Origin: Mobula hypostoma
Lineage: Eukaryota
Direction: 5' to 3'
Assembly (NCBI RefSeq): GCF_963921235.1
Contig: NC_086108.1
Span: 93,374,001-93,438,000, forward strand
Length of the DNA: 64,000 nt
Positions 460 to 56,610 of this stretch are shown piece by piece (position 1 is the first letter of the stretch; every line of letters begins with the position of its first letter). The position numbers were made by a program, and so were the translations under genes. The notes below the pieces were generated by a model. The model was given only the letters and a program-made list of their open reading frames with translations, was not told where the DNA came from and ran no database searches.

Positions 460-1090
460 TGCTCCTGATGCAGCCTCCCCTACGTTGCTGAGACCTGACA
501 CAGATTGGGCGACTGCTCTGTCCAGCACCTTCACTCCTTTTGCAAAAAGCAGGATGTTCCGGTGGCTAACCATTTAGTTTCAATCCCCATTCCCATTCTG
601 ACATGTCAGTCCATGGCCTCCTCTACTGCCATGATGAGGCCATTCTTCAGGTTGGAGGAACAATACCTCATATTCCATCTGTGTAGCCTCCAGCCAGATG
701 GCATGAATATCGATTTCTACAACTTCTGGTAATTTTTCCACCTCCTTCCCACTTCTTCAATTCTCCATTTTTGCTCCCCTCTTACCTCTTCCCTTCTCCT
801 CACCTGCTTATTACCTCCCTCTGATGTCCCTCGCCCTTTCCTTTCTCTAGTCCACCCTCTCCCATCAGATTCCTTCACCTTTTTCACCTACCACCTTCCA
901 GTTTGCACTTCCTTGCCCTCCCACCACCTTCTTATTTTGGCTTCTTCCTCTTTCTTTTCAGTGCTGAAGGGTCCCGGCCCAAATCTGGACTGTTTATTCA
1001 ATTCCATAGATGTTGCCTGTCCTGCTGAGTTCCTCCAGCATTTTGTGTGTATTGCTCTGGATTTCCAGCATCTACAGAATCTCTTGTGTC
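460..1090 (+). mobile_element. Penelope-like element 3' fragment (GIY-YIG C-terminus, pyrimidine-rich UTR, decayed hammerhead tail)
   Basis: ORF 505..732 DVPVANH...RLEEQYLIFHLCSLQPDGMNIDF; tail gatgttgcctgtcctgctgagttcctccagcattttgtgtg shared with other PLE copies. Confidence 0.8.
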
Positions 1091-5810: not shown

Positions 5811-6000
5811 CTATTGACAAATACAATCAAATTAGATCCACTAGTTATTAATTTCCATGAGAAACATCGCAGATGTACATGCAAATTATAAATAATTTAC
5901 TTCTAATTTTGAGTGCAATTCTGTGCCCTAATATATTTTATTAAACATGTATAACTTGATGACATTCCAAATAAAGAAAAAAAAATCTTTTTCATTAGAG

Positions 6001-6209
6001 CAAACAACAGGAATTCTGCAGATGCTGGAAATTCAAGCAACACACATAAAAGTTGCTGGTGAACACAGCAGGCCAGGCAGCATCTCTAGGAAGAGGTGCA
6101 GTCGACGTTTCAGGCCAAGACCCTTCGTCAGGCCTGAAACGTCGACTGCACCTCTTCCTAGAGATGCTGCCTGGCCTGCTGTGTTCACCAGCAACTTTTA
6201 TGTGTGTTG
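6001..6209. mobile_element. Short fold-back Penelope-like insertion with hammerhead core
   Basis: 82-bp perfect inverted arms 6035-6116/6131-6212; 14-bp direct repeat ctttttcattagag at 5987-6000 and 6210-6223. Confidence 0.88.
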
Positions 6210-6531
6210 CTTTTTCATTAGAGAACAGCTTAGTATGATTGAGAAGTTAAGAATAAAACAAAATGCTGATGCTTAAAGGCTGAAGGAAAAACAATATATA
6301 GTTGAAACACATCGGCATCTCTACAAAGAATAAACAAATTTAACACTTCAGGTCATGAACCCTTCATCAGAACCTCTTCTAGGTGTCTGATATCCACAGC
6401 CTACAGTACATTGTCTTCAATCCTTCATAATCCATCTTAATCCAACATTAATACGTGATACATAAAGACAATGGAAGCAAGACAGTAGGAGGAAAACAGC
6501 TAACATTATAATATAGTAATACTTGATATAC

Positions 6532-8629: not shown

Positions 8630-8705
8630 CTATCAAAATGAAAAATGATAGTTCAATTTACCAACTTATTGCTACTTGGAAACAGATGTTTTAACATTCA
8701 ATATA

Positions 8706-14467: not shown

Positions 14468-14479
14468 CTGGAAACTCAT

Positions 14480-14955: not shown

Positions 14956-15115
14956 ATGGATGCTGGCCATCGTTAGGCATAAGAGCATGCAGATTATGAT
15001 ACAATTTTTTTGAAATTGCCACAGTTGGATCCAGTATTGCTTGCCACACGATAGGAAGTGACTGAATGCACTAGACGGAGTGCAAAATAGTAAGTATGCA
15101 GCCTGAGATGATGGA

Positions 15116-19000: not shown

Positions 19001-19710
19001 CAGGAACAGGCTCCAGCCAATGAAGCCTGTGCTGACCGTGATGTCACATTCATAAGATATGACTTCCTCTGCATAAAGCCATGCTGACTATTTTTAATTA
19101 GTCGGTGCCTTTTCAGCTGTGAGTAGATCCTATCCGGAATAATCTTCCTTACTATTGATGCAAGGCTCACCAACCTACAATTTCCTGTTTTGTCTCTATC
19201 GCCCTTCTTAAACAGATGAACAGCAGTGGCTATTCTCCAGTCCTCTGGGACACTGTCTAGATACAAAATATTTTCAAAGATTCAGTAATCTCCTCTGTTA
19301 CCTCTCTCAATAAACCAGAGTATATCCCTGGGAAGTCCTAACAGACCTATACAAAATGTCGAGGGACACAGGCAAGTGTTAAGGAGAAACTTTCCCCCTA
19401 GAGGTGTAAAAATCTGGAGTGCAATGCCTGAGGTGGCACTGGAAACAGGTACTCTAAAAATCGTTTGAAAGATACTTTCTATGGCGTTTGAATCTCTAAG
19501 GCATTTAAGGCTATGGGTGGTGCTGGGAAATGGGATTAGCACAGATGTGCACTTGATAGTCATTGTTGACTAGGTGGGCTGAAGAGTCTTATTCCTTGTT
19601 GAATGACTCAATAAAATGGACTAAGATTAAGACATTAAAAGAACACAAAGACTTAGGGAGGTATTGTAATTTATTCATGAAAGTAGCAAATAGGTTACAG
19701 ACTGACTTGG

Positions 19711-22082: not shown

Positions 22083-22452
22083 TGGGCAGATTACATCAGT
22101 AACAGATGGAAATGAATGTGAAGTATTAGGTGATAATAGTCTGGATTCAAGGAAAACAAACAGAAATATTTCTTAAATGTGTGGAATGGAAAATCCAGAT
22201 GAAGTAAAGGAATTGATTATCTATGTAAAAAAATTTAAAATCTAATAGACACATAGGCTACCAAAACATTGAGCATCATTTCAAGAGAGCTAGCGTAACA
22301 TCAAGAAACTGATTCTTTCCTTGTATAGAGCTCAATCTGATGGACCCTGTTCAGTTATGATATTGAAGAGCTTGGAAGGGAAACAGCCCAAATTCATCAG
22401 AATGATACTTCTGTGTTACAAAGAGGATAAAGCTATATATTACATATACATA

Positions 22453-24490: not shown

Positions 24491-24588
24491 CTCCAGTAGT
24501 TCCGCATGGCTGCTTTTCTGATGGCGAGAATGTGACAGATTCAAGAAAGGTCGACTTACTACTAGATAACCCACGACAGTAGCAAGAT
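24491..24588 (-). CDS. ABCD3: ABCD3 exon 12 equivalent (98 nt)
   Basis: (Y)LATVVGYLVVSRPFLNLSHSRHQKSSHAELLE, also in ORF 24476..24670; AG/GT flanks. Confidence 0.96.
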
Positions 24589-25085
24589 CTATATTAAAAA
24601 AAAGGAAACAAACCACTTTATAAAATCCAGTCAATACTTCAATAGTTTGTAAACATATTTGATTAACCAACTAAGATGATAAGAAAATCCAACAATAATT
24701 CAAAAACGAACATCTTACATACTAACATCTTCATTCCTGGTTTACATACATGCCTTAAAAGAAACCCAAAAAAGGACAACCACGATTAAAGACTGGCAGC
24801 AAAGCTTTGTTAGGGGAGATCACGTCTGATTAATTTGATTGAATTTTTTGAAGAATATTGATGAGGGTACTATTATTGATGCTGATTTCCAGAGACTTCA
24901 ATAGGCTTTGATAAAGCATCCACATGGTTAGATCCCTAGAGATTCAAGGCAATTTGACAAACTGGATCCAAAATTGGTATTATAATAGGACGTGTGGGGT
25001 GATGACGGGGAGTTCTTTTTAAGATCAGAAGCTGGTGACCAGTGGTGTACATATGGATCAATATTGGGATCTTTGTTGTTATATA

Positions 25086-25707
25086 CACTCAGTGGCCACT
25101 TTATTAGGTACACCTGCACACCCACTCATTAATGCAATTACCTAATCAGCCAATCATGTGGCAGCAACTCAATGCATAAAAGCATGCAGAAACGGTCAAG
25201 AGGTTCAGTTGTTGTTCAGACCAAACATCAGAATTGACCCAAGTGATCTTGACCGTGAAATGATTCTTGGTGCCAGATGGAGGAGTTTGAGTATCTCAGA
25301 AACTGCTGATCTCCTGGGATTTTTACACACAACAATCTTGAGAACAGGGGTTCCCAACCTTTTTTTATGCCATGGATAAACAGCATTAAGCAAGGGGTCT
25401 GCGGTTGGGAATCCCTGCTGTAGAGTTACAGGGAACAGTGTGAGAAACAAAAAACATCCAGGAAACAGCGGCTCTGTGGACAAAAATGCCTTGTTAATGA
25501 GAAGAATAGTCAGACTGGTTCAAGCTGACAGGGAAGTGGCAATAACTCAAAGAACTGTGTTACAACAGTGGCGTGCAGAGCAGCATCTCCGAATGCACCA
25601 CACGTTGAACCTGAAATGAATGGGCTGAGCTACGGCAGCAGAAGACCATGAACATATACTCAGTAGACACTTTGTTAGTTACAGCAGGTACCTAATACAG
25701 AGACCAC
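25086..25707 (+). mobile_element. Non-autonomous Tc1 derivative (family of 8706) with nested hAT MITE
   Basis: TA-CACTCAGTGGCCACTTTATTAGGTACACCTG start; ORF 25158..25379 SISETADLLGF. Confidence 0.85.
25345..25417. mobile_element. Tiny hAT-type MITE (73 bp)
   Basis: CAGGGGTTCCCAACC...GGTTGGGAATCCCTG; interrupts Tc1 at a site reading ctctagag in the 8706 copy. Confidence 0.75.
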
Positions 25708-26326
25708 ATTAAAGCACATTAAGTACATTAAAGATTTGGATATGAATGCAGAATGTATGATTAGTAAGTTCACTGATGACATAAAAAATGATGGATATGC
25801 TGATAGTGAAGAGGGTAGTTTTCACTAAGAAGCTACAGAATTATAGTTGATGAGATTGCCAGAGATGGAATTTAACCACTTCACTAGGACATAATACAAA
25901 GGGGCGTCCTGTATTTTGAGGCTGTCCCTGCCTGCTGGCCTTAGACTCTCCCACTGTTGGAAAAATCCTCTCCATGTCCATTCTATAAGCCTTCAAATAT
26001 TCAGTAATTTTCAAAGAGATCTTCCCTCATTTTTCTAAACTCCAGCCATTACAAGCTCAGAACAATCAAATGCTCCTCATATGTTAGCCCTTTCATTCTT
26101 AGGGTCACTCTCATGAACTCCTGGACCTTCGCCAATACTAGCACATCCTTTCTTAGATAAAGGTACCTAAAGCAGCTCACAATACTCCAAGTTTGGTCTG
26201 ATCGATGCATTACAAAGCCCTAGCATTGCATCCTTTTCTTTTAATATTCTAGTTCTCTTGAAATGAATGCTAACATTGCATTTGCTCTCCTTAATACTGA
26301 TTCATCCCACAGGTTAACCTCTAGGG

Positions 26327-26407
26327 CAAGGGTTCCAAACATGGGGTCCATGGACCCCTCGGTAAATGGTAGGAATCCATGGCATAAAAAAAGGTTGGGA
26401 ATCCCTA
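26327..26407. mobile_element. Tiny hAT-type MITE (81 bp), same family as 25345, opposite orientation
   Basis: caagggttccaaac...ccatggcataaaaaaaggttgggaatcccta; imperfect TSD ctctaggg/ctctaaag. Confidence 0.75.
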
Positions 26408-27293
26408 CTCTAAAGAAATCTGCACCTGGACACCCAAGATCCTTTGCACTTTGATTCTGAATTTGGTCTCCATTTAGAAAATAGTCTATGCCTTTACGCC
26501 TCTACTAAAGTGCATGACCATATATTTCCCTACAATGTATGCCATTTACCATAGATGTAGGGAGTACTGAAGAGCAGAAAGAAGTTGGTGTCCAAAGGGG
26601 GTAGCAGAGATCATTGAGAAGGCATATGAGGAAATTGCCTTCATTATCTGGGGTACAGAACATAAGAGCAGAACATTAAGGTTAAACCCTATAAAACATT
26701 GGTAAACTCACAGCTGGATTACAGTGCACAACTCTGGTCGCCATGTTGTAGGAAGCACAGCAGAGGGCAAAGAGAAGATTCACCATGTTGGTGCCTGCTA
26801 TGGAGCATCTCCGACACAAGAGACAGGATTTGCTTTGTTTGGAGCAGGGAAGACTAAAGTATATACAATTATGAGCATACATTGGCAGTAGAGAGTAAAA
26901 AAAAATTCCCCACTACATGGTTGTACAAAATCAGAAGATATAAGTTTTAAGTTAAGGGACAGGTGATTAATTGGGGGGGGGGGTATAAGGAAGAATTTTT
27001 AAATCTAGAGTGTGATTGAAACCTGGAATGAACTGCCTGGATGATTAACGAAGGGATGAGTGCCCACAATATTTAGAAAGTATCAAGACAAGCTTTTGAA
27101 TTGGCATAAAATGGATGGTTATGGATGGTGATGGAGAAAGGGCCTTGTATAAATGGGTATTCATTGGTCACCGTGGATACAGTAGGCCAAAGGATCTGTT
27201 TCTGTGCTATGCCAGTCCATCTGCAACCCCGATTTAACACTACACGTCATTTGTTTAATTATATGCTGTAAAATACATGGTGAACATGGTATT

Positions 27294-28235
27294 CCTCTTT
27301 TCGTGATTTTTATTAACGACCTGGATATGGGGGTAGAAGGGTGGGTTGGCAAGTTTGCAGACGACACAAAGGTTGCTGGTGTTGTAGATAGTGTAGAGGA
27401 TTGTCGAAGTTTGCAGAGGGACATTGATAGGATGCAGAAGTGGGCTGAGAAGTAGCAGATGGAGTTCAACCCAGAGAAGTGTGAAGTGGTACACTTTGGA
27501 AGGACAAACTCCAAGGCAGAGTACAAAGTAAATGGCAGGATACTTGGTAGTCTGGAGGAGCAGAGAGATCCGGGGGTACATGTCCACAGATCCCTGAAAG
27601 TTGCCTCACAGGTGGATAGGGTAGTTAAGAAAACTTATGGGGTGTTAGCTTTCATAAGTCGATGGATAGAGTTTTTAAGAGTCGCAATGTAATGATGCAG
27701 CTCTATAAAACTCTGGTTAGGCCACATTTGGAGTACTGTGTCCAGTTCTGGTCGCCTCACTGTAGGAAGGATGTGGAAGCATTGGAAAGGGTACAGAGGA
27801 GATTTACCAGGATGCTGCCTGGTTTAGAGAGTATGCATTATGATCAGAGATTAAGGGAGTTAGGGCTTTACTCTTTGGAGAGAAGGAGGATGAGAGGAGA
27901 CATGATAGAGGTGTACAAGATAATAAGAGGAATAGATAGAGTGGATAGCCAGCACCTCTTCCCCAGGGCACCACTGCTCAGTACAAGAGGTCATGGCTTT
28001 AAGGTAAGGGGTGGGAAGTTCAAGGGGGATACTGGAGGAAGGTTTTTTACTCAGAGAGTGGTTGGGCGTGGAATGCACTGCCTGAGTCAGTGGTGGAGGC
28101 AGATACACTAGTGAAGTTTAAGAGACTACTAGACAGGTATATGGAGGAATTTAAGGTGGGGGGTTATATGGGAGGTAGGGTTTGAGGGTCGGCACAACAT
28201 TGTGGGCCGAAGGGCCTGTACTGTACTATTCTATG
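27294..28235 (+). mobile_element. CR1 LINE 3' part, second subfamily
   Basis: ORFs 27204.., 27459.., 27662.. (KFADDTKV, LVRPHLEYCVQFWSP); nearly identical to 59210-60155. Confidence 0.92.
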
Positions 28236-28403
28236 AATCTGTGAACAGTCTCCAGCAAAAGCTTCATAAATTGAGTTTGCATATTTTCTGCACATGGTGG
28301 CATCTAGATCCTGCACTCTACCAACGGCAGCAGAGGGAACAAACAAAGCCAACTTTAAAAAGTTGAAGGAGGGGAGATCTTATATTGGCTACTCTCCATA
28401 CCC

Positions 28404-29780
28404 CCACAAAATGCTGGAGGAACTCAGCAGGGCACGCAGCATCTGTGGAAAAGAATACGGTCGGTGTTTCAGGCCGAGACCCTTCATCAGGACTGGAGGA
28501 AAAAAACCTGAAAAGTCAGAGTAAGAAAATGGGGGGAGGGGAAAGAGAAACACAAGGTGATGGTGAAACCGGGAGGGGGAGGGGTGAAGTAAAGAGCTGG
28601 GAAGTTGGTTGGTAAAAGAGATACAGGGCTGGAGAAGGCAGAGTCTGATAGGAGATGACAGAAGGCCATGGAAGAAAGAAAAGGGGAGAGGAGCACCAGA
28701 GGGAGGCGATGGACAGGCAAGGAGGTAAGACGAAAAAGGGAAATGGAGATGGGGACTGGTGAAGTAGTGGGGGACGTTACTGGAAGTTCGCGAAATTGAT
28801 GTTCATGCCATCAGGTTGGAGGCTACCCAGATGGAATACAAGGTGTTGTTCCTCCAAACTGAGTGTGGTCTTGGTGCAACAGTAGAGGAGGCCATGGACT
28901 GACATGTCGGGATGGGAATGGGAAGTGGAATTAAAATGGGTGGCTACTGGGAGATCCCACTTTTTCTGGCGGACGTTTCAATGCACCATAGGTGTTCAGC
29001 GAAGCGGTCTCCCAATCTACGTCAGGTCTCATCGATATACAGGAGGCCACACGGGGAGCACCAGACATAGAATATGACCCCAACAAACTCACAGGTGCAG
29101 TGTCGCCTCACCTAGAAGGACTGTTTGTGGCCCTGAAAGATAGTGAGGGAGGAGGTGCATGGGCAGGTGTAGCACTTGTTCTGCTTGCAAGGATAAGTGC
29201 CAAAAGGGATCTCCCAGTGGCCACTCATTTTAATTCCACTTCCCTTTCCCATTCCAATATGTCTATCCATGGCCTCCTCTACACTGTTGTTACAAGGCCA
29301 CACTCAGTTTGGAGGAACAACACCTTGTATTCCATCTGGGTAGCATCCAACCTGATGGCATGAACATTGATATCTCAAACTTCTAGTAATGGCCTCCCCA
29401 CCCACCAGTTCCCATCCACTTTTTCCTCTCTCACCTCATCTCTTTGCCTCCCTCTGGTGCTCCTTCCCCTTTTCTTTCTTCCATGGCCTTCTGTCCTCTC
29501 CTATTAGATTCCCTCTCTACAGCCCTGTATCTCTTCCACCAATCAACTTCCCAGCTCTTTACTTCACCCCTCCCGCTCCCGGTTTCACCTATCACCTTGT
29601 TTCTCCCTCCCCTACCCCCACCTTCTAACTCTTCATCCTTTTCTCCAGTCCTGATGAAAGGTCTCAGCCCAAAACGTCGACTGTAGTCTTTTCCATAGAT
29701 GCTGCCTGGCCTGCTGAGTTCCTCCAGCATTTCATGTGTGATGCTTGGATTTCCAGCACTGTAGATCTGCTATTGTTTTT
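28404..29780. mobile_element. Penelope-like insertion of two 3' ends in inverted, tails-out orientation
   Basis: Left arm minus to about 29200, right arm plus; both have GIY-YIG C-terminus, UTR and hammerhead-like tail; TSD tactctcYataccc at 28390-28403 and 29781-29794. Confidence 0.85.
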
Positions 29781-29839
29781 TACTCTCTATACCCATTCAC
29801 ATGTATTTTAAATTTATAATGAGTCCACAGGTTGGTCCC

Positions 29840-30768
29840 ATGAAGAGTCCTTGAAAGTGAGTCCATAGCTTGTGGGAACAGTTCAGTGATGGGGCGAATG
29901 AAGTTATCTTTTTTGGTTCAACAGCCTGATGCTTGAGGGGTAATAACTGTTCCTAAACCTGATGGTGTGAGTCCTGAGGCTCCTGTAACTTCTTCCTGAT
30001 GGCAGCAGTAAGAAGAGAGCATGATGCGGGTAGCAGGCGTTCCTGATGACAGATGCTGCTTTCCAGCGACAACGCTCCCTGTGGATGTGCTCAGTGGTGG
30101 AGAGGGCTTTACTCATGATTGCTGGGCCATATCCTGGGAACATATCTTTGCTGCCAGCTTGTACCAAATGGCTTCTAGATCCATTTTCAAGCCTCTGAAT
30201 TTGGACCCTCTAAGGGACCCCAGGTACTCACATTCAAGTCACTGCTCGTCACACCACATTCTAGGCGTCACACTTTTCACCATGAGAAGGTTCCTGGGGT
30301 CACTATCCCATCCACTTCCACAACTCCAGGATACTCTCTCTGCCGCCTGCAACAGACCAGTCCGCTACTTTATCCTCCGCTGGATCCATGCTTTCAATCG
30401 CTGGTTTTTCGACTTTCTCACATCCTGCAGGATTGGAAGATCACCTATCTACAGACTACAGAAGCTGCTGTCTCCATCGCCGGCAGGCATGGACATCTCC
30501 AGACAGCGACCCCTGCTGTCAACTTCAACAGTTGACTAATCTCATGTTTTTGATATTTATTGTTTATTTATTTTCTTTCTTTTTGTATTTACACTTCTTT
30601 TTGTCTTTTGCACGCTGTTTGTTCACCCTGTTCATGTAGCCTTTCATTGATTCTATTATGGTTATTGTATTTATTGAGTATACCCACAAGAAAATGATTC
30701 TCAGGGTTGTGTATGGTGACTTATATGTACTTCGAGCTTTGAGTGAATCTGCTTTGCTTACCACACTT
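29840..30768. repeat. Rearranged local copy of 32316-33251
   Basis: 29840-30533 matches 32546-33251 directly; 30539-30768 is the reverse complement of 32316-32547. Confidence 0.9.
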
Positions 30769-30864
30769 TACAAGCAAAGTCAGCTGCCAGCAGCTTGGAA
30801 CATGGACTGAAGCTCAATAACATTTTCCCAAAGGAGTCAATTATCTAAGTCATCATTTTTCATT

Positions 30865-31640
30865 AGGTGTTGCACTTTGGTAGGAACAACTGGTTCTTAC
30901 ACAGTGAATGGTAGGGCACTGTGGAGTGCATAGAACAAAGGGATCTGGGAATTACAGGTCCATAATTCACTGAAAGTGGCAGCACAGGTAGGTAGGGTCA
31001 TAAAGAAAGCTTTTGGCACACCAGCCTTCATAAATCAAAGTATTGAGTACGGGAGTTTTGATGTTATGTTGTAGTTGTAAAAGACGTTGGTGAAGCCTAA
31101 TTTGGAGTATTGTGTGCAGTTTTGGTCACCTAGCTACAGGAAAGATGCAAGTAAGGTTGAAAGAAACAGAGAAAATTAACAAGAATGTTGTTGGGACTGG
31201 AGAACCTGCATTATAAAGAAAGACTGAATAGGTTAGGACTTTATTCCTTGGAATGTAGAAGATTGAGGGGAGAGTTGATAGAGGTATACAAAATTATGAG
31301 GAATATAGATAGGGTAAATACAAGTAGACTGAGACTGAGGTGACTTTTTGTACACCTGGAGATCATGGTTAAGGGTGAAAGGTGAAAAGTTTAAGGGGAA
31401 CATGAAGGGAAACTTCCTCACCCAAAGGGTCGCGTGAGTGTGGAACAAGATGCCAGCACAAGTGGTGCATGTGAGCTCAATTTCATTGCTTTAGAGAACT
31501 TTGGATAGGTACGTGGATGGTAGGGGTATGGAGTGCTATGGTCCTGGTGCAGGCCGATGGGAGTAGGCAGTTTAAATGGTTCGACACAGTCCAGATGGGT
31601 CAAAAGGCCTGTTTCTGTGCTGTACTTTTCTTCGACTCTA
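30865..31640 (+). mobile_element. Older CR1 3' fragment
   Basis: ttggagtattgtgtgcagttttggtcacc (LEYCVQFWSP) and CR1 3' UTR. Confidence 0.8.
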
Positions 31641-33604
31641 TTAAGAACCAAATCAGCTTGTTCTTTGATCACTGAGCTAGGATCAGGCACACAATAAGAA
31701 TATTCTGGAGCCAACTTAACTGTTTTAGAAATTCATACAATTTTGGTTAAATGGTTTTTTCATTCTCCTTTATCAGAAGCTCAAGTCTACCTTTGACCCT
31801 TCAAATTCTCCAAGCTTTAATTCTCAATGAAAAAGTCACCAGCATAATATGTAAAAGACTGAAAACCAATCACTCTGAAACAGCTGAAATTACATTCAAG
31901 AAAGTATAGCTTTCTTCAAGAATTCAAAAATATTGTCCATAAATTACTCCAGACCATGTTTTAACAATAGAACAATGTTGTGTTTCCCTACACCACTGCT
32001 GTGGTGAATCCCAATGAGAGAAGGAAGTTAAATTGCGAGGCTAATAGAACAATGTTGCCACGTTTCCCTGTGTAAGACCCTGTTGAAATTAGCACAATTG
32101 GTTTCATTATAGCATTTCCCTTTACAAGTTTTCAGACTCAAATTGTTACTGACAAATCTTACCATACAAGAAACGTTTTTGCAAGTACAGGGAAATGTTG
32201 TCAGAGTATGAATGGAAAGAACTACGTAAGGTTTCTTAATTTTCAAAATCTTCCTGCAGACAACTTGTGTGATGCACTACATGTGATATAATTTGGGAGC
32301 GCTTTACGTCAGCGCAAGTGTGGTAAGCAAAGCAGATTATCACTCAAAGCTCGAAGTACATATCAGTCACCAAACACAACCCTGAGATTCATTTTCTTGT
32401 GGACATACTCAATAAATACAATAACCATAATAAAATCAATGAAAGACTGCACCAACAGGGTGAACAAACAGTGTGAAAAAGACAAAAAAGGGTGTAAATA
32501 CAAAAAGAAAGAAAATAAATAAACAATAAATATCGAAAACATGAGATGAAGAGTCCTTGAAAGGGAGTCCATAGGTTGTGGGAACAGTTCAGTGATGGGG
32601 CGAGTGAAATTATCCTTTTTGGTTCAACAGCCTGATGGTCGAGGGGTAATAACTGTTCCTAAACCTGATGACGTGAGTCCTGAGGCTCCTGTAACTTCTT
32701 CCCGATGGCAGCAACGAGAAGAGAGCATGATCTGGGTAGCAGGCGTTCCTGATGACAGATGCTGCTTTCCAGCGACAACGCTCCGTGTAGATGTGCTCAA
32801 TGGTGGAGAGGGCTTTACCCATGATTGTTGGGCCGTATCCTGGGAACAAATCTTCACTGTCAGCTTGTACCAAATGGCTTCCAGATCCATTTTCAAGCCT
32901 CTGAATTTGGACCCTCTAAGGGACCCCAGGTATTCACGTTCAATTCACTACTTCTCCCACTGCTCCTCACACCACGTCCTAGGTGCCACACTTTTCACCA
33001 TGAGAAGGTTCCTGGGGTCACTATCCCATCCACTTCTACAACTCCAGGATACTCTCTCTGCCGCCTGCAACAGACCAGTCCGCTACTTTATCCTCCGCTG
33101 GATCCATGCTTTCAATCGCTGGTTTTTCGACTTTCTCACATCCTGCAGGATTGGAAGATCACCCATCTACAAACTATAGAACCTGCTGTGTCCATCACCG
33201 GCAGGCATGGACTTCTCCAGACAGCGACCCCTGCTGCCAACTTCAACAGTTCTGATCAACAGCAGATTCAGAACCCGGACTTCACCGCCTTCAATGTGGG
33301 TTCCAACTACCTCACACACCCGCAAAGTGCCGATTGCGCAACCTCCAACTCCCAACTCCAGCCTTGACCGACAGTACCTCCAGGCCGGGACTTTATGCAC
33401 TGCTCCTGGAACCCTCATCTGGCCTTCCCCAAAACCACTCTGCATTCCCTTGTCTCTCAGTCCCACCAACAGCTCTCGAGTCCTCAGAGACTCCATCTTC
33501 CTCTTACACCACCATCCCTGAACACCCCAACCCTCCCTTCTCCTCAGACACTACCAATCCCACGACCCTAGTTCTTATCCACAACGGGTCTTCAACATCC
33601 CCTC

Positions 33605-34211
33605 GTCGAGCACCTCCGCTCCATCCGACACAACAGACAGGATCTCCCAGTAGCCACCCACTTCAACTCTGCTTCCCATTCCCATTCAGATATGTCCATA
33701 CATGGCCTCCTCTACTGCCATGATAAGGCTAAACTCAGGTTGAAGGAGCAACACCTCATATACCGTCTAGGTAGTCTCCAGCCCCTTGGTACAGACATAG
33801 AATTCTCCAACTTCCGGTAATTCCCTCCCCCTCCCTTCCTCTATCCCTATTTCACTCTGCCCCCTCCTCCAGCTGCCTATCACCTCCCTCATGGTTCCAC
33901 CTCCTTCTACTACCCACTGTGTTTTCCCCTATTCCTTCTTCACCTTTCCTGCCTATCACCTCCCGGCTTCCCCTCCCCCACCCCTTTATCTTTCCCCTTA
34001 CTGGTTTTTCAACTGGACCTACCAGCCTTCTCCTTCTCACCCTCCCCCACCTTCTTTAAAGGGCCTCTGCCCCCTCCCTCTTCAGTCCTGACGAAGGGTT
34101 CCGGCCCGAAACGTCGACTCATCGTTTCCACGGATGCTGCCTGACCTGCTGAGTTCCGCCAGCAAGTTGTGAGTGTTGCTTTGATCCCAGCATCTGCAGA
34201 TTATTTTGTGT
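33605..34211 (+). mobile_element. Younger PLE 3' fragment nested in the older PLE
   Basis: VEHLRSIRHNRQDLPVA..LKEQHLIYRLGSLQP; 7-bp TSD tcccctc at 33598-33604 and 34212-34218. Confidence 0.85.
34083..34119 (+). ncRNA. Minimal type I hammerhead ribozyme motif (PLE-associated)
   Basis: cAGTC CTGACGA aGGGttccggCCC GAAAC GTC|GACT: conserved core boxes, stem I AGTC/GACT, stem II GGG/CCC, palindromic ACGT in place of stem III. Confidence 0.75.
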
Positions 34212-37200
34212 TCCCCTCAGATCTTCCCCTCTCTGAGGCAGAATGTTCTGTCCTCAGTAAGGGTCTCACTTTTGTCCCCCTATGACACCGCACACCAATG
34301 ACCCCTTCTCCCATCTTCAACCCTTCTCCTCTTCCTGGACACTCCATTCTGGTCTTCAGCCTGCTCTGGATCATTTCATTGCTAACTGCCGATGGGACTT
34401 CAGTCATCTCAATTTCACTCTTCTCTCCAATTCCAACCTCACTCCTTCCAACCGCACTGCTCTCCACTCTCTCCACACTAACCCTAACCTCACCATCAAA
34501 TCTGCAGATAAGGAAGCTGCTGTAGAAGTTTGGTCTACAGACCTCTACCTTGCTGAGGCCAGGTGACAACTCTCAGACACCTCCCCTTACTTATCCCTCG
34601 AACAGTACCCCACTAAGGGTCACCAGGCCATTGTTACCGGCACCATCACTGACCTTATTAGCTCTGGGGATCTCCCATTCACTGCCACCAACCTCTTAGT
34701 TTTTGCACCCTGCACCTCACGTTTCTAGCTCCTGCCCAGATACACAAACCCGCCTGTCCACGTAGACCCATTGTTTCTGCTTGTTCCTGACCCACTGAAC
34801 TTGTATCTGCATACCTCAACTGAATTTTATCCTCCCGGTTCAGTCCCTTACTATCTATTTCCATGACACTTCACACGATCTTGATCTTTTCAATGATTTC
34901 AAGTTCCCTGGCCCTGAGTATCTTATTTTGTCTATGGATGTCCAGTCCCTATACATCTCATCCCCCACCAGGAAGGCCTCAAAGCTCTCCATTTCCTTCA
35001 GACCCAACCAGTTTCCCTGCACTACCACCCTCCTCTGCCTGATGGAACTTGTCCTCACACTCAATAATTTCTCTCCTCCCACTTCCTTCAAACAAAAGGT
35101 GTAGCCACGGGCACTCACATGGGTCCCAGCTGTGCCTGCCTTTTTGTTGGCTACGTGGAAAAATCTATGTTCCAAGTCTACACTGGCATCACTCACCAAC
35201 TTTTCCTACACTACATCGACGACTGCTTAGGCGCTGCTTCCTGCACCCATGCAGAGTTCATTGATTTCATCAACTTTGCCACCAATTTCCACCCTGCCCT
35301 CAAATTTAGCTGGTCCATTCCTAACACCTCCTTCCCCTTTCTTGATCCCAGTATCTCTACCCTCTGGAGACAGCTTATCTGCTGATGTCTATTATAAATC
35401 CACCGATTCTCACAGCTACTTGGACTATACCTCTACCCACCATCAATGCTGCCCTCAGCTGCATCTCTTCCATTTCACGCATGTCTGCCCTCAACCCATC
35501 CTCGTGCCACCTCACCACGGATAGAGTTCCTCTTGTCCTTACCTAACACCCCACCAGCCTCCACATCCAGCACATAATTCTCCACAACTTCCACCATCTC
35601 CAACAGGCTTCCATCACGAAGCACATTTTTCCCTGCCCCCCACTTTCTGCTTTCCGTAGGGATTACTCCCTACACGACTCCCTTATCCATTCATCCCTCC
35701 ACACTGATCTCCCTCCCGGCACTTATCCTTGCAAGCAGAACAAGTGCTACACCTGCCCCTACACCTCTTCCCTCACCCCAAACAGTCCTTCCAGTTGAGG
35801 TAACACTTCACCTCTGAATCTGTTGGGGTCATCCACTATATTCGGTACTCCCAGTGCGGCCTCCTGTATATCGGTGAGACCCGATGTAGACTGGGAGACC
35901 ACTTCACCGAGCACCCACACTCCATCCACCAGAAAAAGTGGGATCTCCCAGTGGCCACCCATTTTAATTTCATTTCCCGTTCCCATTCTCCCATTCTGAC
36001 ATGTCACTCCATGGCCTTCTCTACTGTTGCGACGAGGCCACACTCAGGTTGGAGAAGTAACACCTTATATTCTGTGTGGATAGCCTCCTACCTGATGGCA
36101 CGAACATTGATTTCTCGAACTTCTGGTAATGCGCGCCCCCCCTTCACCATTCCCCATCCCCCTTTCCCTCTCTCACTTCATCTCCTTACCTGCCCAACAT
36201 TTTCCTCTGGTGTTCCTCCCCCTTTTCTTTATTCCATGGCCTTCTGTCCTCTCGTATTAGATTCCCCCTTCTCCAGCTCTGTACCTCTTTCATCAATCAA
36301 CTTCCCAGCTCTTTACTTCACCATTCCCCTCATGATTTCATCAATCACCTGAAATGTCGACTGTACTCTTTTCCATCGACGCTGCCTGACCTGCTGAGTT
36401 TCTCCAGTATTTTGTGTGTTTAGCCTCGATTTCCAGCACTGCAGTTGTTCTCTTGTTTGTGATCGGGCCATAACCACTACTTTTTGTAGGGATTTTCCAT
36501 TCAAGGGCATTGGTGTTTCCAAATGAGGCTGTGATGTAGCCAATCAATAGACTCTCCACCACACATCTATTGAAGTTTGTCAAAGTTTTAGATGTCATGC
36601 CGAATCTCACAAACTCCGAAGGAAGTAGAGGTGCTGCTGTGCTTTCTTCATAATTGCACTTACATGCTGGGCCCAGGACAGGTCCTCTGAAATGATAACA
36701 CTGAGGAATTTAAAGATGCTGACCCTCCGATCCTCCAGTGAGGACCTCCAGTTTCCTCCTCCTGAAGTCAATAATCAGCTCCTTGATCTTGCTGATTTTG
36801 AGTAAGAGGTTGTTGTAGTGGCACCACTCAGCCAGATTTTCAATCTCCTTTCTATATGCTCAAAAATATTACACCAACAGATTTCCCAACAAATACCAAT
36901 GCACCGAAAGTTATACACAAAATTGCTCTATACCATGTTAGAATGATTTTCAATAGTACAGTTCCGTTTTCTTTGGAGAGACATTAATAAATTTCTAGCC
37001 CACAACCTGCTGCAGCTACTGGCATTGTTTCACATTCCACCACTGCAAAACAACAACAAGTCTTAACTGTGAAACAAACAAACCAGGTTCAAATTTAAAA
37101 GTTGCATTAGAAGGGTTTCTAATCTAGTTTTTTTAACTTTGCTCAGACTTAAAAGTTAAAATAGAAGGCAGGGGAGTAGAGGTGACTGGAAGAATTAGAT

Positions 37201-37270
37201 CAGCCCATGATTGAATGGCGGAGCAGACTCAATGAGCCGAACGGCCTACTTCTGCTTCCATATCTTATAG

Positions 37271-37459
37271 CAGGGGAAGGCAACCTTAAGCACAAATGAT
37301 TTTCTAGCATGCGTTATTCATTAATTTGAGGCAAAACATAACTAGATGCATTTAAATGGATAATTCCCATATTTCAAGTTTTTTATGGCATCTACCTGGC
37401 CCACCGTCCGCTCATTAATACGTGATCCAGCCCACAGAGGCAAAAAGGTTGCCAACCCG
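37271..37459. mobile_element. hAT-type MITE (189 bp) at the end of a CR1 tail (about 37180-37270)
   Basis: caggggaaggcaacct...aggttgccaacccg; TSD tcttatag/tcttacag. Confidence 0.7.
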
Positions 37460-38222
37460 TCTTACAGTTTTGCTTGATATTTAGCACATCTTTCAGAAGT
37501 ACTGATATAAAAGGCTGTTCATCAAATATATTTTCTCACCACAGTGTCACAGTGAGCATGTTTTAAAGGTTTTCAGAAGCATATTAAAACAGTCAAATTT
37601 ACAATATGTATGAATACAAGATAACTAATCTCTAATAGATTATAATGCACTATTACAAAGTACAACTTCAATGCCAAAGTCTTTCCGGATACTGTGTTTC
37701 AAAGTTAGCAGCATAAAATTTGAACAATGTTGTTTAGTTTCTCTGTGTGACAATATGTTGAGTTTCTTAACCAGTAATCCTATTTTGTGGAATGCCAAAC
37801 TACTGAACCCACACTTAAAGGCATGAGACTTCCACATGTAACATTTCCCTGTTCTACAAAGGATATTCATTTCAGCTCATGAGAAAATCACCATCTAAAA
37901 TAGTGAGCAGTGTATGATTTTAGATTCTATAGTGAAAATCACAGTTAATGTAAAAGATGTTTTAAATTTTAGACCATAAGATATAGGAGCAGAAGTAGGC
38001 TATTCAGCCCATCGAGTCCGCTCCACATTCAATCATGGGCTGATCCAATTCTTCCAGTCATCCCCACTCCTCTGCCTTCTCCCCATACCCTTTGATGCCC
38101 TCGCTAATCATGAACCATTTTGAAATGGCAGAATACTTTTGGGAAAATTCTCTGGAATAGAATTGGAATCAGGATGCCCATATTAAAAAAAGATCATAAT
38201 TTCTGACAATGTATATACTTAC

Positions 38223-38292
38223 ATTTGGCAATTATACTGTCCACAAATCCCATGGTGAAACGAAAGACGATGAAATTATGCAGGTGATCCAC
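38223..38292 (-). CDS. ABCD3: ABCD3 exon 11 equivalent (70 nt)
   Basis: VDHLHNFIVFRFTMGFVDSIIAK; AG/GT flanks. Confidence 0.95.
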
Positions 38293-39590: not shown

Positions 39591-39734
39591 CTTTATGACT
39601 TTAATTGGCGATTTTTAATGAAAAATATTGAAATACATAACCTTGAAGGCCAATCTGAAAAAATGTTTGGAATTTCTTCACCAATAAACTGCATGCTAAA
39701 AGTAAATGTCAATCATGCAAATGTTACGCTTTCT

Positions 39735-40445
39735 ATGGAGGGAAATAAACTGTCAATGTTTTGTGTTGAGACCCTTCAGTTTGACTGAAAATGAAGCCAG
39801 AATAAGGAGGTAGGGGGAGCAGAAGTAGAAGTCTGTAGGTGATAAGTGAGACCAGGTGAGAGTAAAGATGGGTGGGTGGGGAAAGAGGGATGAAGTGAGA
39901 AACTGGAGGGAATAGCTAGAAGAGGTAAAGGGCTGTAGAAGAAGGAATCTAATAAGAGACACTGGATCATTGAAGAATGGGAAGGAGGAGGGAATCATAG
40001 GTTGATGGGCTAGCTGAGAAGAGAAGGAGTGAAAGTGTAATTAGAATGGGGAATGGAAAAAGATAGGAGGGGAGAAATTACTGTAAAAGGAATCAATGTG
40101 CATGCCATCAGGTTGAAGACTACCCAGATGGAAAATGAGGTATTGCTCCACCAAGCAAAGTCTGGCATCATCGTTGTAGTAAGCATAGATACGTCAGAAC
40201 ATGAATGGGAGGTTGAATTGAAATGGGTAACCACTGGGAGATCTGGCCTTCCACAGCACACAAAGTGAATAGTTTGACAAAGCAGTCCTCCAAGTTGCAC
40301 TGATGTAGAGGATGTCGCACCGGAAGCACTGGATACAGGAGATGACCAGGATGGACACGCAAGTGAAGTGTTGCCTCACCTGGAAGGACTGTTTGGGGCC
40401 CCAAATGGTAGTAACGAAGAAGGTCTAGGGGCAAGGCTCTCACTT
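39735..40445 (-). mobile_element. Penelope-like 3' fragment
   Basis: ORF 40010..40300 PDLPVVTHFNSTSHS; purine-rich UTR on +; decayed hammerhead tail. Confidence 0.78.
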
Positions 40446-40680: not shown

Positions 40681-42285
40681 ACAATACTGAGCACCTCCCT
40701 GTCAGTAAACAGGAAAGTGTTACAAATAGCAAACAGGAAATTCAATCGGCCATCATTTTACCAAGGACAGTTTTCCTAGTTGTCCAAGTGTCATGCTATG
40801 GAAAGGCAGAACAACTTCACTGCAAATTAAAATCAGTGCCAATTTAAATTTTCTGGTTGACCTGCAAGTCTTTCAGGGTCAAGAAACATGGCACTGCGAG
40901 GGAAGTAGGAACTTCCTTTGTCAACAGCCTACATAGGCCAGGAGTACTAATCTTGTTCTTTTTTGTTTCAAAAGGAAGTATTCAGCTTCTCCTCTATCTT
41001 TCATACCCTTCCCTTGTCATAGCTATCACCTCCTTCCTGCTCTCCCCACTGGCCATCCACTGCCCGATTTAACTTAGTGAACTACAGTTAAGATAATGGA
41101 AACAAGAGGGAAAAAAAATTGAGAGCTAGATAGCCAGCTACTCTCAAAGGCCATTTAGACTTGAGATGATCCTCAAGCTTCTCCTTAGCAAGATGGTGCC
41201 AGAGTGTGGTAACTCGTTCAAGCTGCTTTCAGTAGATCTACTCATTACTATTATAATTGCTCTATGCTTTTAAGTCTAAATTCTATGGCTCTAAGAATTA
41301 CACTTTATTATCCTATTACTAGTCCTCAATGTACTGGTGTGATGGTATGATCTGTAAGGATGGTATGCAGTAAAGCTTTCCACTGTACCTCGGTACAGGT
41401 GACAATAACAAATCAATTTACTGAACATATTCTCTTACTGGGCAACTACCAACTGTCCAAGTGCAGTCCAGGGCTCTTACAGTCACTATGGCGAAACCAG
41501 AAAGATAATCTACCCACTATTAATGACTTCAATTAAGTTGCACTTTATAGAAAGTGAAAGATAATGCATCTAACTTAAAATTTAAAGCAGGAAAATTCTA
41601 ATAGATATATTTCTTGTAACAATTTTAATTAGTAGCAGAAATCAAATTATTGCACAATATTTTGAGAACACACCTGCTTTTTGCTTTTCCAGCACAATAA
41701 ACACAATAATTCAGGTGGCAAACTCTATACCCAGTATTTCTTCAATTCCAGACTTAAAAGGCAATACAAGGCAGCAACATACAACAGCATTTTTTAAATC
41801 ATTAAACATTTTTAAAGGAGTAAAAATAGTTGAAACATGTAGAACACTAGGAAACAACTAAGTACACTTAAATCATTTCAATTTTATATAAGAGAAATTG
41901 AAGGAAGTGCAGATACTGGAAATATGAAACAAAACAGAAATATGAGGGGGCATAATTTTAAGGTGATTGGAGGAAACTATGGGGGGGATGTCAGGGGTGT
42001 GACACGTCATTTTTCACAGAGAGTGGTGTGTGTGCAGAACGCCCTATCTGAGGTGGTGGTAGAGACAGATATATTCGAGCATTTAAGAAACTCGTATATA
42101 GGCACAAATAGGCTATGTAAGAAGGAAGGGTTAGATTGACCTTAGAGTACACTTAAGGTCATACAAAATCATGAGCCGATGGGTCTATGCTCTGCTGTAA
42201 TGTTCTATGCTGCTAGATAGAGACACAGGAGGCTGCGTATGCTGGAAGCTACAGCAAGAGACAAGATGCTGGAGGAACTCAGCAG

Positions 42286-42925
42286 CATGCTGGCCTTCAT
42301 AACAAGGGGAATTGAGTATAGGAGCAAAAAGGTCCTTCTGCAGCTGTACAGGGCCCTGGTGAGACCACACCTGGAGTACTGTGTGCAGTTTCATTCTCCA
42401 AATTTGAGGAAGGACATTCTTGCTATTGAGGGAGTGCAGCTTAGGTTCACAAGGTTAATTCCCGGGATGGAGGGACTGCCATATGTTGAAAGATTGTAAC
42501 GACTGGGCTTGTATACACTGGAATTTAGAAGGCTGAGAGGGGATCTTATTGAAACATATAAGATTATTAAGGGATTGGACACGCTGGAGGCAGGAAGCAT
42601 GTTCCCGCTGATGGGTGAGTCCAGAACCAGAGGCCACAGTTTAAGAATAAGGGGTAGGCCATTTAGAACAGAGTTGAGTAAAAACTTTTTCACCCAGAGA
42701 GTGGTGGATATGTGCAATGCTCTGCCCCAGAAGGCTGTGGAGGCCAAGTCTCTGGATGTTTTCAAGAAAGAGATGGATAGAGCTCTTAAAGATAGCAGAA
42801 TCAAAGGTAATGGGGAAAAGGCAGGAACTGGATACTGATTGTGGATGATCAGCCATGATCATAGTGAATGGTGTTGCTGGCTCGAAGGGCCGAATGGCCT
42901 ACTACTGCACCTATTGTCTATTGTC
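42286..42925 (+). mobile_element. CR1 3' end inserted in a PLE tail fragment; older CR1 tail at about 41935-42210
   Basis: ORFs 42239..42499 and 42509..42838; cctattgtctattgtc tail. Confidence 0.9.
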
Positions 42926-43397
42926 ATCATCAACAGTTCCGGGGCAAATGTGAAGAGAGAAACAGGTCAATGACTTTTTTTTTTAAATGTTTCCTGCATG
43001 TGCTATTTTTATTATATTAATAATCAAAACAATTTGTACTTGTGCTTCTCTCTACAGTCATTTTTTGCTGATAAAATAAATGGGTCTGTTGGACCTGCTG
43101 CAGACATATTTCTCAGCTCAGCTGTTGAGAATGTCCCAGCTAGACACCATGAGAAGTCAAACAAAGTACAGATGTCTTATAAGCAGTTGTAGAAAATTCT
43201 GGACATTCCTTCACTTAGAAGTCTACAATTTCCACATGGTCACATGAGTAAAAGTTGATAGTTCCAACATAAGCCAAAGTATGACAAGATTTCTGCATTT
43301 ACAACTTTGCAAGGTTATCTGACTTTATCCTGTCTTTTATGCTCCCATTCCCCACCCATAAATAGCAAGGCTTATAAAAAAATTTAGCTTTAAACAT

Positions 43398-48929: not shown

Positions 48930-50599
48930 CTGTCAAGAGAAAACAATGTATGTGGTTAATAATCAATGAAAACATTTCATGGAAATATTAATTATACAGA
49001 TTGCCAATATGATAACTTTAAAATAGCTAATTAAATTCATTCAACAAAACAAATTGCACCACATATTACTGGGCTCAGCTATTGTTTATAAGACATTGAT
49101 CAAGGGTGACATGTCAAAATATGCTACTTCCCCAAGGAAGAAATTAGTCTTCAGATCCTGCATTAAACACGTCATAAATTAATCTATATGTAAACATACA
49201 GGACAATTAGGAGTAGGACTCAAACCTGTTTACTTAATAAGATCTGACTATAATCTCAATTTTATATTGCCGACTTCCAGTGATTACACCCCTTGGCTTA
49301 CCAGTACTTCTGCCTTAAAAATATTCTAAGTTTCTGCTTCCAAGATTCCGCTTTTTTTTCTCTCTCATAAGTGACGCCTTGTTTTAGATTCTCAAGTAAC
49401 AAGAAACATTACCTCCACATCCATCAAGTCGAGACCTCTCAAAATCTTATACATCTCAATTCCACCCCTCGGCCCCCCCCCACCCTCGCCATTCTTCTAA
49501 CCTCCAGCTGAATGAGCCTTGCCTGTCCTGATGAGTACTCAGCTATTCTGGATTTCAATATACTAAATCTCTTTGCAAGTGCTTCCAATATATTAACACC
49601 CCTCTGTACACAAAAAGACTAAAACATTTATACAACAGTCTGGGATCTCACTAATGTCTTATGCAATTGACACAAAATCTCTCTCCTTTTGTAACAAAAT
49701 ACAAACTATTGGAGCAACCCAGCAGGTGAAGCAGCATACATAGAGCTAGAGAGCTAGCCAAGGGTTTGGGTCGTGATCCTGTATCAGGGCTCTTATCTTA
49801 CCCTCAATAACTTTAAAAACATATATTTTTCCGGAGAGTCGGAGGGCCCTCTTCTTCTTTCTGAGACAAAATCCCAACCAATCCTATCCACTAACACCCT
49901 CATTCACCCGGCAGAAATTGTTTTTACTATCTATGACTTTTTTAAAAATTGCTCCAGATTCTAGCATCTGCGTTCCTCTTCTTTTGTATGTATTCCCTTT
50001 CAATAAATATTGACCTTGTTAGCCTTCTTAATTATTCAATGTACCTTCATAGTAACTTTTGTAAATCATGCTCAAGGACATCCAAATCCTTCTGCATCTC
50101 AGATCTCTGTAACCCTTCCACACTTAAATAAACACGCCTTTCCATTCTTCCTGCCAAAATGATAATACTCATTTTGTAGGTTTTAGTCACTCTCTGAACC
50201 CATCTATATCCTTTTCTCTCCATCTTTTATCTTCTTCACAGCTTACTTTCCTGCCTATATTTTTGTCAAGTGCAAAATTAGCAACCATATCTCATGGTCT
50301 GCAACATACTGTATGGACAAATGGATTGCTTGGCATATATGTCAAAGACTTATTTCTACTTTATTATGTTTTTGCAAATCAAATGCACAATGCACCAATA
50401 GTTATAGAAAGCAATTTTAGGGCTCCAACTCCAGCTTCTACTTGTTAGTCTGGAAGTAAAGATAGTCATTCAAACTTTGGTCATCTAATTGCGGATGTCA
50501 CCGGCACATTAAATTTAGACATATTTGAAAGGAGTGCTGAAGAGAGCCACTGATAATTTATCTCAAAGTGTGATCTCCATTACCTTTATCTGTATTGTA

Positions 50600-52701: not shown

Positions 52702-52912
52702 ACACACACAAAATGCTGGAGGAACTTAGGTCAGGCAGCATCTATGAAAAAAGAGTGAATAGTGGACGTTTCAAGGCAGGACCCTTTAACGGGACTGTCA
52801 GCCCAAAAGGTTGACTGTTTACTCTTTTCCATAGATGCTACTTGGCCAGCTGAGTTCATCCAGCATTTTGTGTGTGTTGCCTGGATTTCCAGTATATGCA
52901 GATTTTCTCCTG
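52702..52912. mobile_element. Older short fold-back PLE tail insertion
   Basis: acacacacaaaatgctgga..gcatctatgaaaaaagagt mirrored by actcttttccatagatgc..tccagcattttgtgtgtgt. Confidence 0.78.
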
Positions 52913-55289: not shown

Positions 55290-56610
55290 AGTTGATACAG
55301 TTTTACACTCCATGATCCACTCTCCACTCCTACTAGATTCTTCCTTCTTCAGCTTTTTAATTTTTCCACCTATCACCTCCCAACTTCATACTCTCACTCT
55401 CCCACCCACCCACCATTCCCTCATTTGGCTTCACATATCACCTTCTAGATTGTACTCCATCCCCTTCCCTAAATCTTCTTTTCCTGGTTTCTTCCCTCTT
55501 CTTTTCCTGGTTTCTTCCCTCTTCCTTTCCTCTCCTGATGAAGAAGGGTCTTAGCCCTAAATGTCAACTGCTTATTCCTCTCAATAGATGCCGCCTGACT
55601 GGCTGAGTTCCTCCAGCATTTTGTGCGTTATTCTGAGTTGCAAGTAGACAATCTTAGAGGTAGCACCTCTCAATTCTTAGAGAAGACTCTGGTAAATGTG
55701 TCACTGAAGTTGTGACTGCCATCGTTCAGCTTCAGACAACTCATAGAAACTGTCAGTGGCAAGAGTGTAACTTTTACATAAACCCAATGATAATGGCTCC
55801 AGTCTTCCTAACAATTAATTTAAGAGAAATAGCTCATTCAGTCTTAAATTTTGTACAACATTCTGATAATCTAGTGACAGTGAAATCATCAAACGGGTTC
55901 CTCTCTGAATTTATGGAGGCACATAAGAAAACAGATGCTCAAATCTACAGCAAAGAAATAAACTGCTGGAAGAAACTCATTGTGTTAAGCAGGAAGGCAA
56001 ATCCACAGACCTAATGGATATGGATGTGGATGTGGTCTCCTCGACATAGTTGAAACTAAGCATAGACTAGGTAACCGTTTTGTGGAGCACCTGTTCTCTC
56101 TCCATAATAGCCAGATTGAGCTTCCAACTGCATGTCATTTCAACTCCTCTTGCCACTCTCATACCAAATTATCTGTCCTCATCTTTCTCCATTCCCATGA
56201 TGAAGGTCAAGTGCAAACGAAAAAAATATTAGTTCATATTCTGCTTGGCTAACCTGCAGCCCAACCGTATGAGTACTGAATTTCAGGTCACTCAGTCCAT
56301 GCTCCTTTTGCACGTTCATCAGTCCACCCAGGATCTCTCTCCTTTTATTCACTTACCCCATACCCCCTCGTTACCTAGACTCTTCATCCACCCCACCTTG
56401 TTCCATTGACTCAATATTGCTTCCTTATCTGTTTTCACCTATCAACTGCCTGCCTCCACCACAACAGTCCCTCTCACTTCTATATATTGGCTAACTTCCC
56501 TCTATGATCTCAGTTCTGATGCAGGGTTTTGATTTGAAACATCAACCATCCCTTTCCTCCATAGATCCTGTTTTTGACTCGCAGAGTTCACCGGTGTATT
56601 TTTTTTTTCT
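55290..56610 (+). mobile_element. Two decayed PLE 3' fragments (about 55290-55630 and 56040-56610)
   Basis: cctgatgaagaagggtcttagcc tail; gtggagcacctg..catttcaactc..aacctgcagccc GIY-YIG remnants. Confidence 0.65.

Follow-up and report, generated by a model that had tools for sequence, protein, structure and literature searches.

A probably inert minimal hammerhead motif of a Neptune-type Penelope-like retrotransposon lies antisense in an ABCD3 intron of Mobula hypostoma

The DNA analysed here (the window) is a 64-kb stretch of the Mobula hypostoma genome that contains ABCD3, the exons of which run from 56774 to 5676 on the minus strand. In the intron between the ABCD3 exons ending near 38224 and 24586, sequence inspection and a strict descriptor identified a structurally intact minimal type I hammerhead of the G10.1-C11.1 class at 34084-34119 (+), antisense to ABCD3 as the original prediction had it. 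The motif is part of a 607-bp, 5'-truncated insertion of a Penelope-like retrotransposon (PLE). Over 33598-34218, this young PLE, flanked by a 7-bp duplication, interrupts the ORF of an older member of its own family in the same orientation; the older ORF breaks off near 33600 and continues near 34205.

Table 1. Features of the hammerhead locus and further copies of the family in the window
Feature	Position	Strand	Evidence or remarks
Decayed copy	962..1050	+	3' of endonuclease remnant at 454-726
Head-to-head fold-back pair of young subfamily A ends	6000..6212
Weak remnant	6313..6375	-	Profile search, E 0.16; not among the 423 copies of the tile survey
ABCD3 intron holding 34084-34119	24587..38223	-	tblastn; borders approximate
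Decayed copy, gene-sense	28403..28497	-	U11.1, G16.2 to A, U16.1 to C
Decayed copy	29645..29740	+	G10.1 to A, G12 to A
Older decayed PLE, same family and orientation, host of the insertion	32820..36430 (about)	+	blastn, tblastn
Left target-site duplication	33598..33604		7 bp
5'-truncated Neptune-type PLE insertion, sister subfamily B	33605..34211	+	607 bp; GIY-YIG C-terminus, 3' UTR, hammerhead, tail; tblastn, blastn, tree
C-terminal piece of GIY-YIG endonuclease frame	33605..33820	+	Stop TAA 33818-33820
Stem I, 5' strand	34084-87	+	AGTC
Core	34088-94	+	CTGACGA
Single extra A (after A9)	34095	+
Stem II	34096-99 with 34104-07	+	GGGT/GCCC, loop TCCG
GAAA	34108-11	+	Followed by C-G-T
C17	34115	+	Predicted cut after 34115
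Stem I, 3' strand	34116-19	+	GACT
Element sequence past the predicted cut	34116..34211	+	96 nt, including optional 30-40-nt PLE tail
Right target-site duplication	34212..34218		7 bp
Hammerhead remnant of older host element	36347..36419	+	Without CUGANGA; substrate strand retained
Weak remnant	39732..39788	-	Profile search, E 0.24
Strongly decayed copy	49699..49792	-	Absent from the original list
Older head-to-head pair	52703..52876		Both arms decayed
Decayed copy	55539..55627	+
Strongly decayed copy	56510..56601	+

A minimal type I PLE hammerhead had been predicted at 34083-34119, and all its elements were found at the positions given for them, with CUGANGA, GAAA and UH in type I order. Stem II, described as GGG/CCC, is present but comprises four pairs, one of them U·G. 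Stem III is a loopless ACGU palindrome that is invariant in the subfamily alignment, which supports the proposal that a second copy is needed. Moreover, the extra base after A9 and the G10.1-C11.1 pair are both present. A scan with curated covariance models (Rfam) did not recover the motif, no hammerhead being among five matches at E<=10; such a miss would be expected for a motif without stem III. A version of the pattern with a 7-base spacer has only 42 copies in the genome, indicating that the spacer length is fixed.

The class had been regarded as already known, and minimal hammerheads have indeed been published from the pseudo-LTRs of metazoan PLEs, including Xena, Poseidon and Neptune of fish (Cervera and De la Pena 2014, PMC4209133). 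The motif shares with them the type I topology, a stem III that is only a palindrome, the extra base after A9, G10.1-C11.1, a short stem I and, at about 270-290 nt 3' of the endonuclease stop, a location within the pseudo-LTR; as in that class, copies are mostly solitary. By contrast, stem II has four pairs in M. hypostoma and 7-8 in Schistosoma, a minimal hammerhead of which showed no cleavage as a monomer and low cleavage as a dimer (PMC4209133). Judged by every sequence feature tested, the motif at 34084-34119 is a member of this published class.

The insertion matches the full-length element L068 at 74% over 74 amino acids in tblastn and at 75-76% in blastn, and it matches L021 at 93.5% over 573 nt in blastn. 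Longer family copies encode a reverse transcriptase (RT), the sequence CKRNKCYTC and a GIY-YIG endonuclease. In L068 and L003, CKRNKCYTC lies between RT and endonuclease as a CX2-5CxxC linker; the definition of this linker and the Neptune clade of endonuclease-containing (EN+) PLEs follow Craig et al. (2021, PMC8557442). Pfam RVT_1 and GIY-YIG were found on close homologues, and eight broken family fragments searched alone gave no Pfam match. The closest named proteins are from stingray and carpet sharks, in keeping with a cartilaginous fish as host. Apparently through an annotation artefact, a PLE fragment with RT and GIY-YIG is listed as a public stingray protein (P0121) under the name 'divergent protein kinase domain 1C isoform X2'.

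The family resembles EN+ PLEs of the Neptune clade in the order of RT and C-terminal GIY-YIG, the linker, the pseudo-LTRs, 5' truncation, an inverted 5' copy and a one-sided tail, and differs from them in that the insertion at 33605-34211 sits in another PLE with its 7-bp duplication (PMC8557442). Penelope and Poseidon have no CxxC linker, which sets the clade apart from Poseidon of Anolis; Nematis has the same linker as Neptune (PMC8557442), and the vertebrate PLE clades given in a recent preprint are Neptune and Poseidon only (Li et al. 2026 preprint, 10.64898/2026.07.22.740005). In total, linker and domain features, rather than a tree with reference elements, point to Neptune (or Nematis) and away from Penelope/Poseidon.

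Non-LTR retrozymes also have a type I hammerhead of PLE origin and are reported from one cartilaginous fish, but they are short non-coding tandem repeats, whereas 33605-34211 is a truncated coding element without a tandem unit (10.64898/2026.07.22.740005). A retrozyme array was rejected at this locus, where a single insertion retains part of an endonuclease and is bordered by a target-site duplication. We conclude that the 37 bases are very likely the minimal hammerhead motif of a Neptune-type PLE, in a solitary truncated copy that is antisense to ABCD3 and probably inert.

A profile built from 30 genomic copies gave 14 matches at E<=1 in the window and 0 in the reversed window. It recovered all relatives named in the original prediction, two of them weakly (6313-6375, E 0.16; 39740-39777, E 0.24), as well as copies beyond that list at 6131-6204 (+) and 49699-49792 (-). 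The copy at 29646 has the G12 to A change ascribed to it but G10.1 to A as well, and the copy at 6099-6135 has the intact core described, yet its stem I is broken (AGGC) and it carries U11.1. The latter copy is the minus, gene-sense arm of the pair at 6000-6212; the plus arm (6131-6212) begins inside stem II, and the junction hairpin is predicted at -17.6 kcal/mol. This pair and that at 52703-52876 are short head-to-head fold-backs with both arms ending in the ribozyme and, typically, the tail on one arm only.

Searches of the genome with three exact patterns gave 11,829, 13,291 and 46,382 matches, and each reversed pattern gave 0, on which grounds a chance match was rejected. The last two counts are copies with intact core and stems and with C11.1 or U11.1, respectively, and bring the intact exact-pattern copies to 59,673 (reversed control, 0), in agreement with the very large ribozyme-motif family that had been proposed. 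We found 423 copies in 1.664 Mb (160 tiles and the window; reversed control, 0); if these regions are typical, the genome total is roughly 0.9 million copies. The ~60,000 intact copies in M. hypostoma compare with ~4,000 in coelacanth and ~9,000 in Xenopus, counted under different search rules (PMC4209133). The text of that report and the portions of its supplement examined name no cartilaginous fish. Moreover, literature searches outside Repbase, one supplement of PMC4209133 and most subscription papers returned no description of this family in sharks or rays.

Of 126 intact motifs listed on C1:0-5.55 Mb, 24 belong to head-to-head pairs, and eight lie within 4 kb of another intact motif on the same strand, which indicates that most motifs are solitary. 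Full-length elements were sought by a protein search of the genome, in which 68 of 105,119 candidates were scored and the best 30 loci examined. A frame of 1043 codons, encoding RT and GIY-YIG as a single ORF, is open in 10 of these 30 loci. An upstream pseudo-LTR is present in 12 of the 30, and in 10 of the 30 two whole hammerheads flank the ORF in tandem about 3.5 kb apart; the distance between the two predicted cuts of L068 is 3,516 nt. Separately, G000:C90:7173248-7203228 has four identical variant motifs, and the spacing of three of them, 2,342 bp on a single strand, points to a tandem array or a duplication in place.

Within the genome, we detected no covariation of the stems, departures being mostly CpG transitions (251 of the 423 copies cover the motif). 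A directed search for a covarying stem II subfamily gave 97 matches and 19 in controls, nearly all of which resemble double decay of the main family. By contrast, in 80 metagenome loci that encode related PLE proteins, a descriptor gave 13 motifs in 10 loci (control, 0). Seven of these were omitted from the alignment as near-duplicates, as one base shorter (L256) or as a different form (L259). In the resulting alignment of nine sequences (six outside motifs from about four families and three of our own), six of eight pairs change on both sides, and the covariation score is 0.83 versus 0.29 after shuffling and at most 0.16 after sliding, a result that leans towards structure as the descriptor demands pairing. 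The covariation expected across subfamilies is thus absent within the genome but present across distant PLE relatives. G10.1-C11.1 is retained in all six outside rows.

Subfamily B, to which the copy at 34084-34119 belongs, and young subfamily A are 77% identical in the endonuclease (23% differ), and the C11.1 form of A differs from this copy by two loop bases over 36 nt. In the youngest subfamily, G10.1·U11.1 replaces the conserved G10.1-C11.1 pair, and 78% of the intact copies in M. hypostoma are G·U, unlike the G10.1-C11.1 of published PLE motifs (PMC4209133). All 30 best-ORF loci carry U11.1 in their 3' motif, as do 22 of 22 tree rows with an endonuclease at least 95.6% identical to that of L068 (six of them drawn from the best-ORF loci); among the next rows (90-95.6%), four of five have C11.1. 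Moreover, decay at other CpGs is 9% in 45 U11.1 copies versus 26% in 20 C11.1 copies. Thus, U11.1 is shared by rows near L068 and accompanied by less CpG decay, indicating that it was inherited from young source elements rather than produced by decay. From the conservation of G10.1-C11.1 (PMC4209133), U11.1 would be expected to lower ribozyme activity. Nothing was found in the literature on G10.1 with U11.1, and the parts consulted of PMC2837043 and PMC544870 give no rate for the wobble. In the U11.1 subfamily (L041-L070), the extra A could pair with U11.1 instead, a shifted register with similar predicted energy in the dimer fold.

The original prediction held that gene-sense copies in the window are mutated or locked in a hairpin and suggested selection against them. 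If gene-sense intact motifs cut host pre-mRNA, alone or paired in cis or in trans, selection would remove or disable sense copies. In the window, all five sense copies are indeed broken, one being locked in a hairpin, but so are seven of the eight antisense copies. The strand sample comprised six genes (1.66 Mb), namely ABCD3 and five large CUB-domain genes that, with their strands, were found from exon clusters only and that we infer to be CSMD- or cubilin-like. These genes contain 202 sense and 221 antisense copies (p=0.38), of which 18 and 17, respectively, are structurally intact (Fisher p=0.72), and the 95% interval for the sense share among intact copies is 0.34-0.69. The whole catalytic core is present in 38 sense and 40 antisense copies, and core mismatches per copy are alike on both strands (p=0.70). 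As 31 of the 35 intact copies have U11.1, the test is weak for the intact G10.1-C11.1 class, in which the four copies (one sense, three antisense) lean towards selection; tandem retrozymes are likewise reported to be depleted from Xenopus introns (10.64898/2026.07.22.740005, preprint).

Decay is CpG-driven on both strands. In 249 copies covering core and tail, mismatch rates are 0.085-0.15 at non-CpG core positions, 0.08-0.14 in the tail and 0.33-0.41 at CpGs, with both strands alike. In the U11.1 family genome-wide, G8 to A occurs in 1,795 copies, G to A at the loop CpG in 2,657 and G16.2 to A in 2,479. The G8 to A knock-out is therefore not in excess, at 0.68 times the frequency of the loop change; its shortfall may reflect context or slight selection keeping the core. 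Furthermore, one large CUB-domain gene contains two intact gene-sense U11.1 motifs (L204:3854 and 7304), which are separate insertions 3.45 kb apart. Altogether, the intron strand bias of intact motifs that had been anticipated is not seen in the six genes, and we regard selection against gene-sense intact copies as highly improbable. From the negative outcome of the strand comparison, solitary minimal hammerheads would seem to do no harm in pre-mRNA. Intact copies in introns face both ways equally often, and the copy at 34084-34119 is thus likely inert, ordinary debris. Host exaptation of the motif was considered and rejected. As a single locus, this copy is unimportant, being one among ~60,000 intact copies and ~0.9 million remnants of a known motif.

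In the fold predicted for the monomer, G5-G8 are paired to C15.2-C17 (-12.5 kcal/mol). For two strands, the predicted energies are -15.9 kcal/mol for the active dimer fold and -30.1 kcal/mol for the best fold, in a nearest-neighbour model that leaves out tertiary contacts and help by protein. The active dimer fold lies far above the best two-strand fold, which suggests that help would be needed. A lone copy without stem III, with its core predicted to be sequestered, would probably be inert. On an antisense transcript, a hetero-dimer of the motif with the substrate strand of the older host element 2.2 kb downstream is formally possible.

Copy ends were examined in 66 young copies chosen because they extend 55 nt or more beyond the cut; 64 of them have a usable 5' end (two at tile edges were dropped). 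The 3' ends fall into two clusters, at +55-74 (36 copies) and +85-114 (30 copies). Among the 5' ends, 33 lie 5-60 nt before the cut and a single one lies exactly at the cut; thus, the pile-up at the predicted cut site that we looked for in these copies was not found. Instead, 5' ends concentrate at -27 to -39, with a stop rate of 0.024 per base (15 of 48 copies at risk) versus 0.001-0.002 beyond -60. No shared upstream exon was seen before the copies truncated at -27 to -39, and many of these are joined to an inverted copy. The few starts at the cut and the pile-up before it suggest that templates were mostly uncut or re-sealed RNA. A pyrimidine tract and CAG adjoin stem I in the subfamilies seen; they lie in the truncation zone 27-39 nt before the cut (L068:640-650; subfamily A in L071-L230), where some copies also have what we take to be a branch-point-like word (TACTAAC) and initiator-like words. 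Copying is probably ended by a feature at the front edge of the ribozyme, be it an RNA start, a splice acceptor (pyrimidine tract and CAG) or the fold itself. Among contigs of five sequencing runs, no splice junction to this CAG was listed, an observation without weight for or against a splice acceptor.

The hammerhead of an Anolis PLE cleaves only with protein and is dispensable for insertion in vitro, and reverse transcription of this PLE has two internal start sites, by which the tail is delimited (Frangieh et al. 2024, PMC11167929). As in Anolis carolinensis Poseidon, the M. hypostoma family has two 3' ends 30-40 nt apart past the hammerhead, and its copies cross the cut site. By contrast, the start codon of Anolis Poseidon is within the ribozyme, whereas about 55 nt separate the cut from the beginning of the open frame in M. 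hypostoma; for Anolis Poseidon, activity was measured (PMC11167929).

From published work, the two ACGU palindromes would pair as stem III only in full-length elements or between two RNAs, probably helped by the protein of the element. The copy ends described here suggest that uncut RNA would be the template of most new copies, that reverse transcription would start about 55-75 or 95-110 nt beyond the cut, and that it would often stop during or just after crossing the ribozyme. Such early stops would scatter solitary motifs that then decay neutrally, mainly at CpGs, and conservation of the motif would act at active source elements and not by the host at insertion sites.

Two other accounts of the role of the motif have to be weighed against this scheme. 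The ribozyme pair might excise the 3.5-kb unit RNA in vivo, with the re-ligated circle as the main template and the solitary motifs as by-products of copying over the re-sealed junction. Such a model has been proposed (PMC4209133), the tandem hammerhead arrangement it needs exists, and the stems covary across distant relatives; moreover, upstream pseudo-LTRs of 370-780 nt or more join the ORF seamlessly in 10 of 12 loci, as a circle would give. However, linear cut RNA would leave copies that start at the cut, as only one of the 64 does, and a circle alone offers no explanation for the excess of 5' ends 27-39 nt upstream. In addition, the G10.1-C11.1 pair was lost in the most amplified wave, and the Anolis work found insertion by catalytic mutants and not a single read ending at the cut (PMC11167929). 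We therefore consider a circular main template unlikely.

Alternatively, the motif might no longer be a ribozyme in this lineage and survive only as a protein-binding, promoter or splice signal. The prevalence of U11.1 in the 3' motif of all 30 best-ORF loci would fit a loss of this kind, as would the inactive fold predicted to be favoured by C7, the pyrimidine tract and CAG beside stem I, and the lack of a covarying subfamily in the genome. Yet, despite four CpGs, the subfamilies have all retained every catalytic residue, the extra A and the palindromic ACGU, and the motif matches those of distant animal PLEs with covarying stems. Complete loss of the ribozyme role thus appears distinctly unlikely.

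For the most successful recent wave, we tentatively propose, as a possible rather than the expected outcome, that it spread with uncut RNA as its template and with a ribozyme detuned by G10.1·U11.1 and by sequestration of the core by C7. The position 27-39 nt before the cut, where 5' ends are ~20-fold enriched, would then be the RNA start of the element, a 3' splice site or a structure that blocks RT, and the hammerhead would act mainly as a brake or boundary and not as a processing enzyme. If this reading is true, tens of thousands of datable copies make it testable. Because a conserved stem II pair distinguishes its successive waves and its copy ends record where copying started and stopped, the family offers a natural experiment on the role of PLE hammerheads.

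The window also contains LINE-type RT elements at 12400-22100, 27100-28200, 42280-42930 and 58960-60000, mostly on the minus (gene-sense) strand and including an 852-codon open frame at 15335-17893. Transposase-like frames at 22621-23808, which we take to be of Tc1/mariner type, form a 333-nt inverted repeat. A duplication (29840-30533 and 32546-33251), the units of which are 93-95% identical and about 2.7 kb apart, includes the 5' part of a PLE ORF. Finally, short palindromic elements at 7240-7397 and 8701-8767 have sub-threshold matches to miRNA families and are probably miniature inverted repeats.
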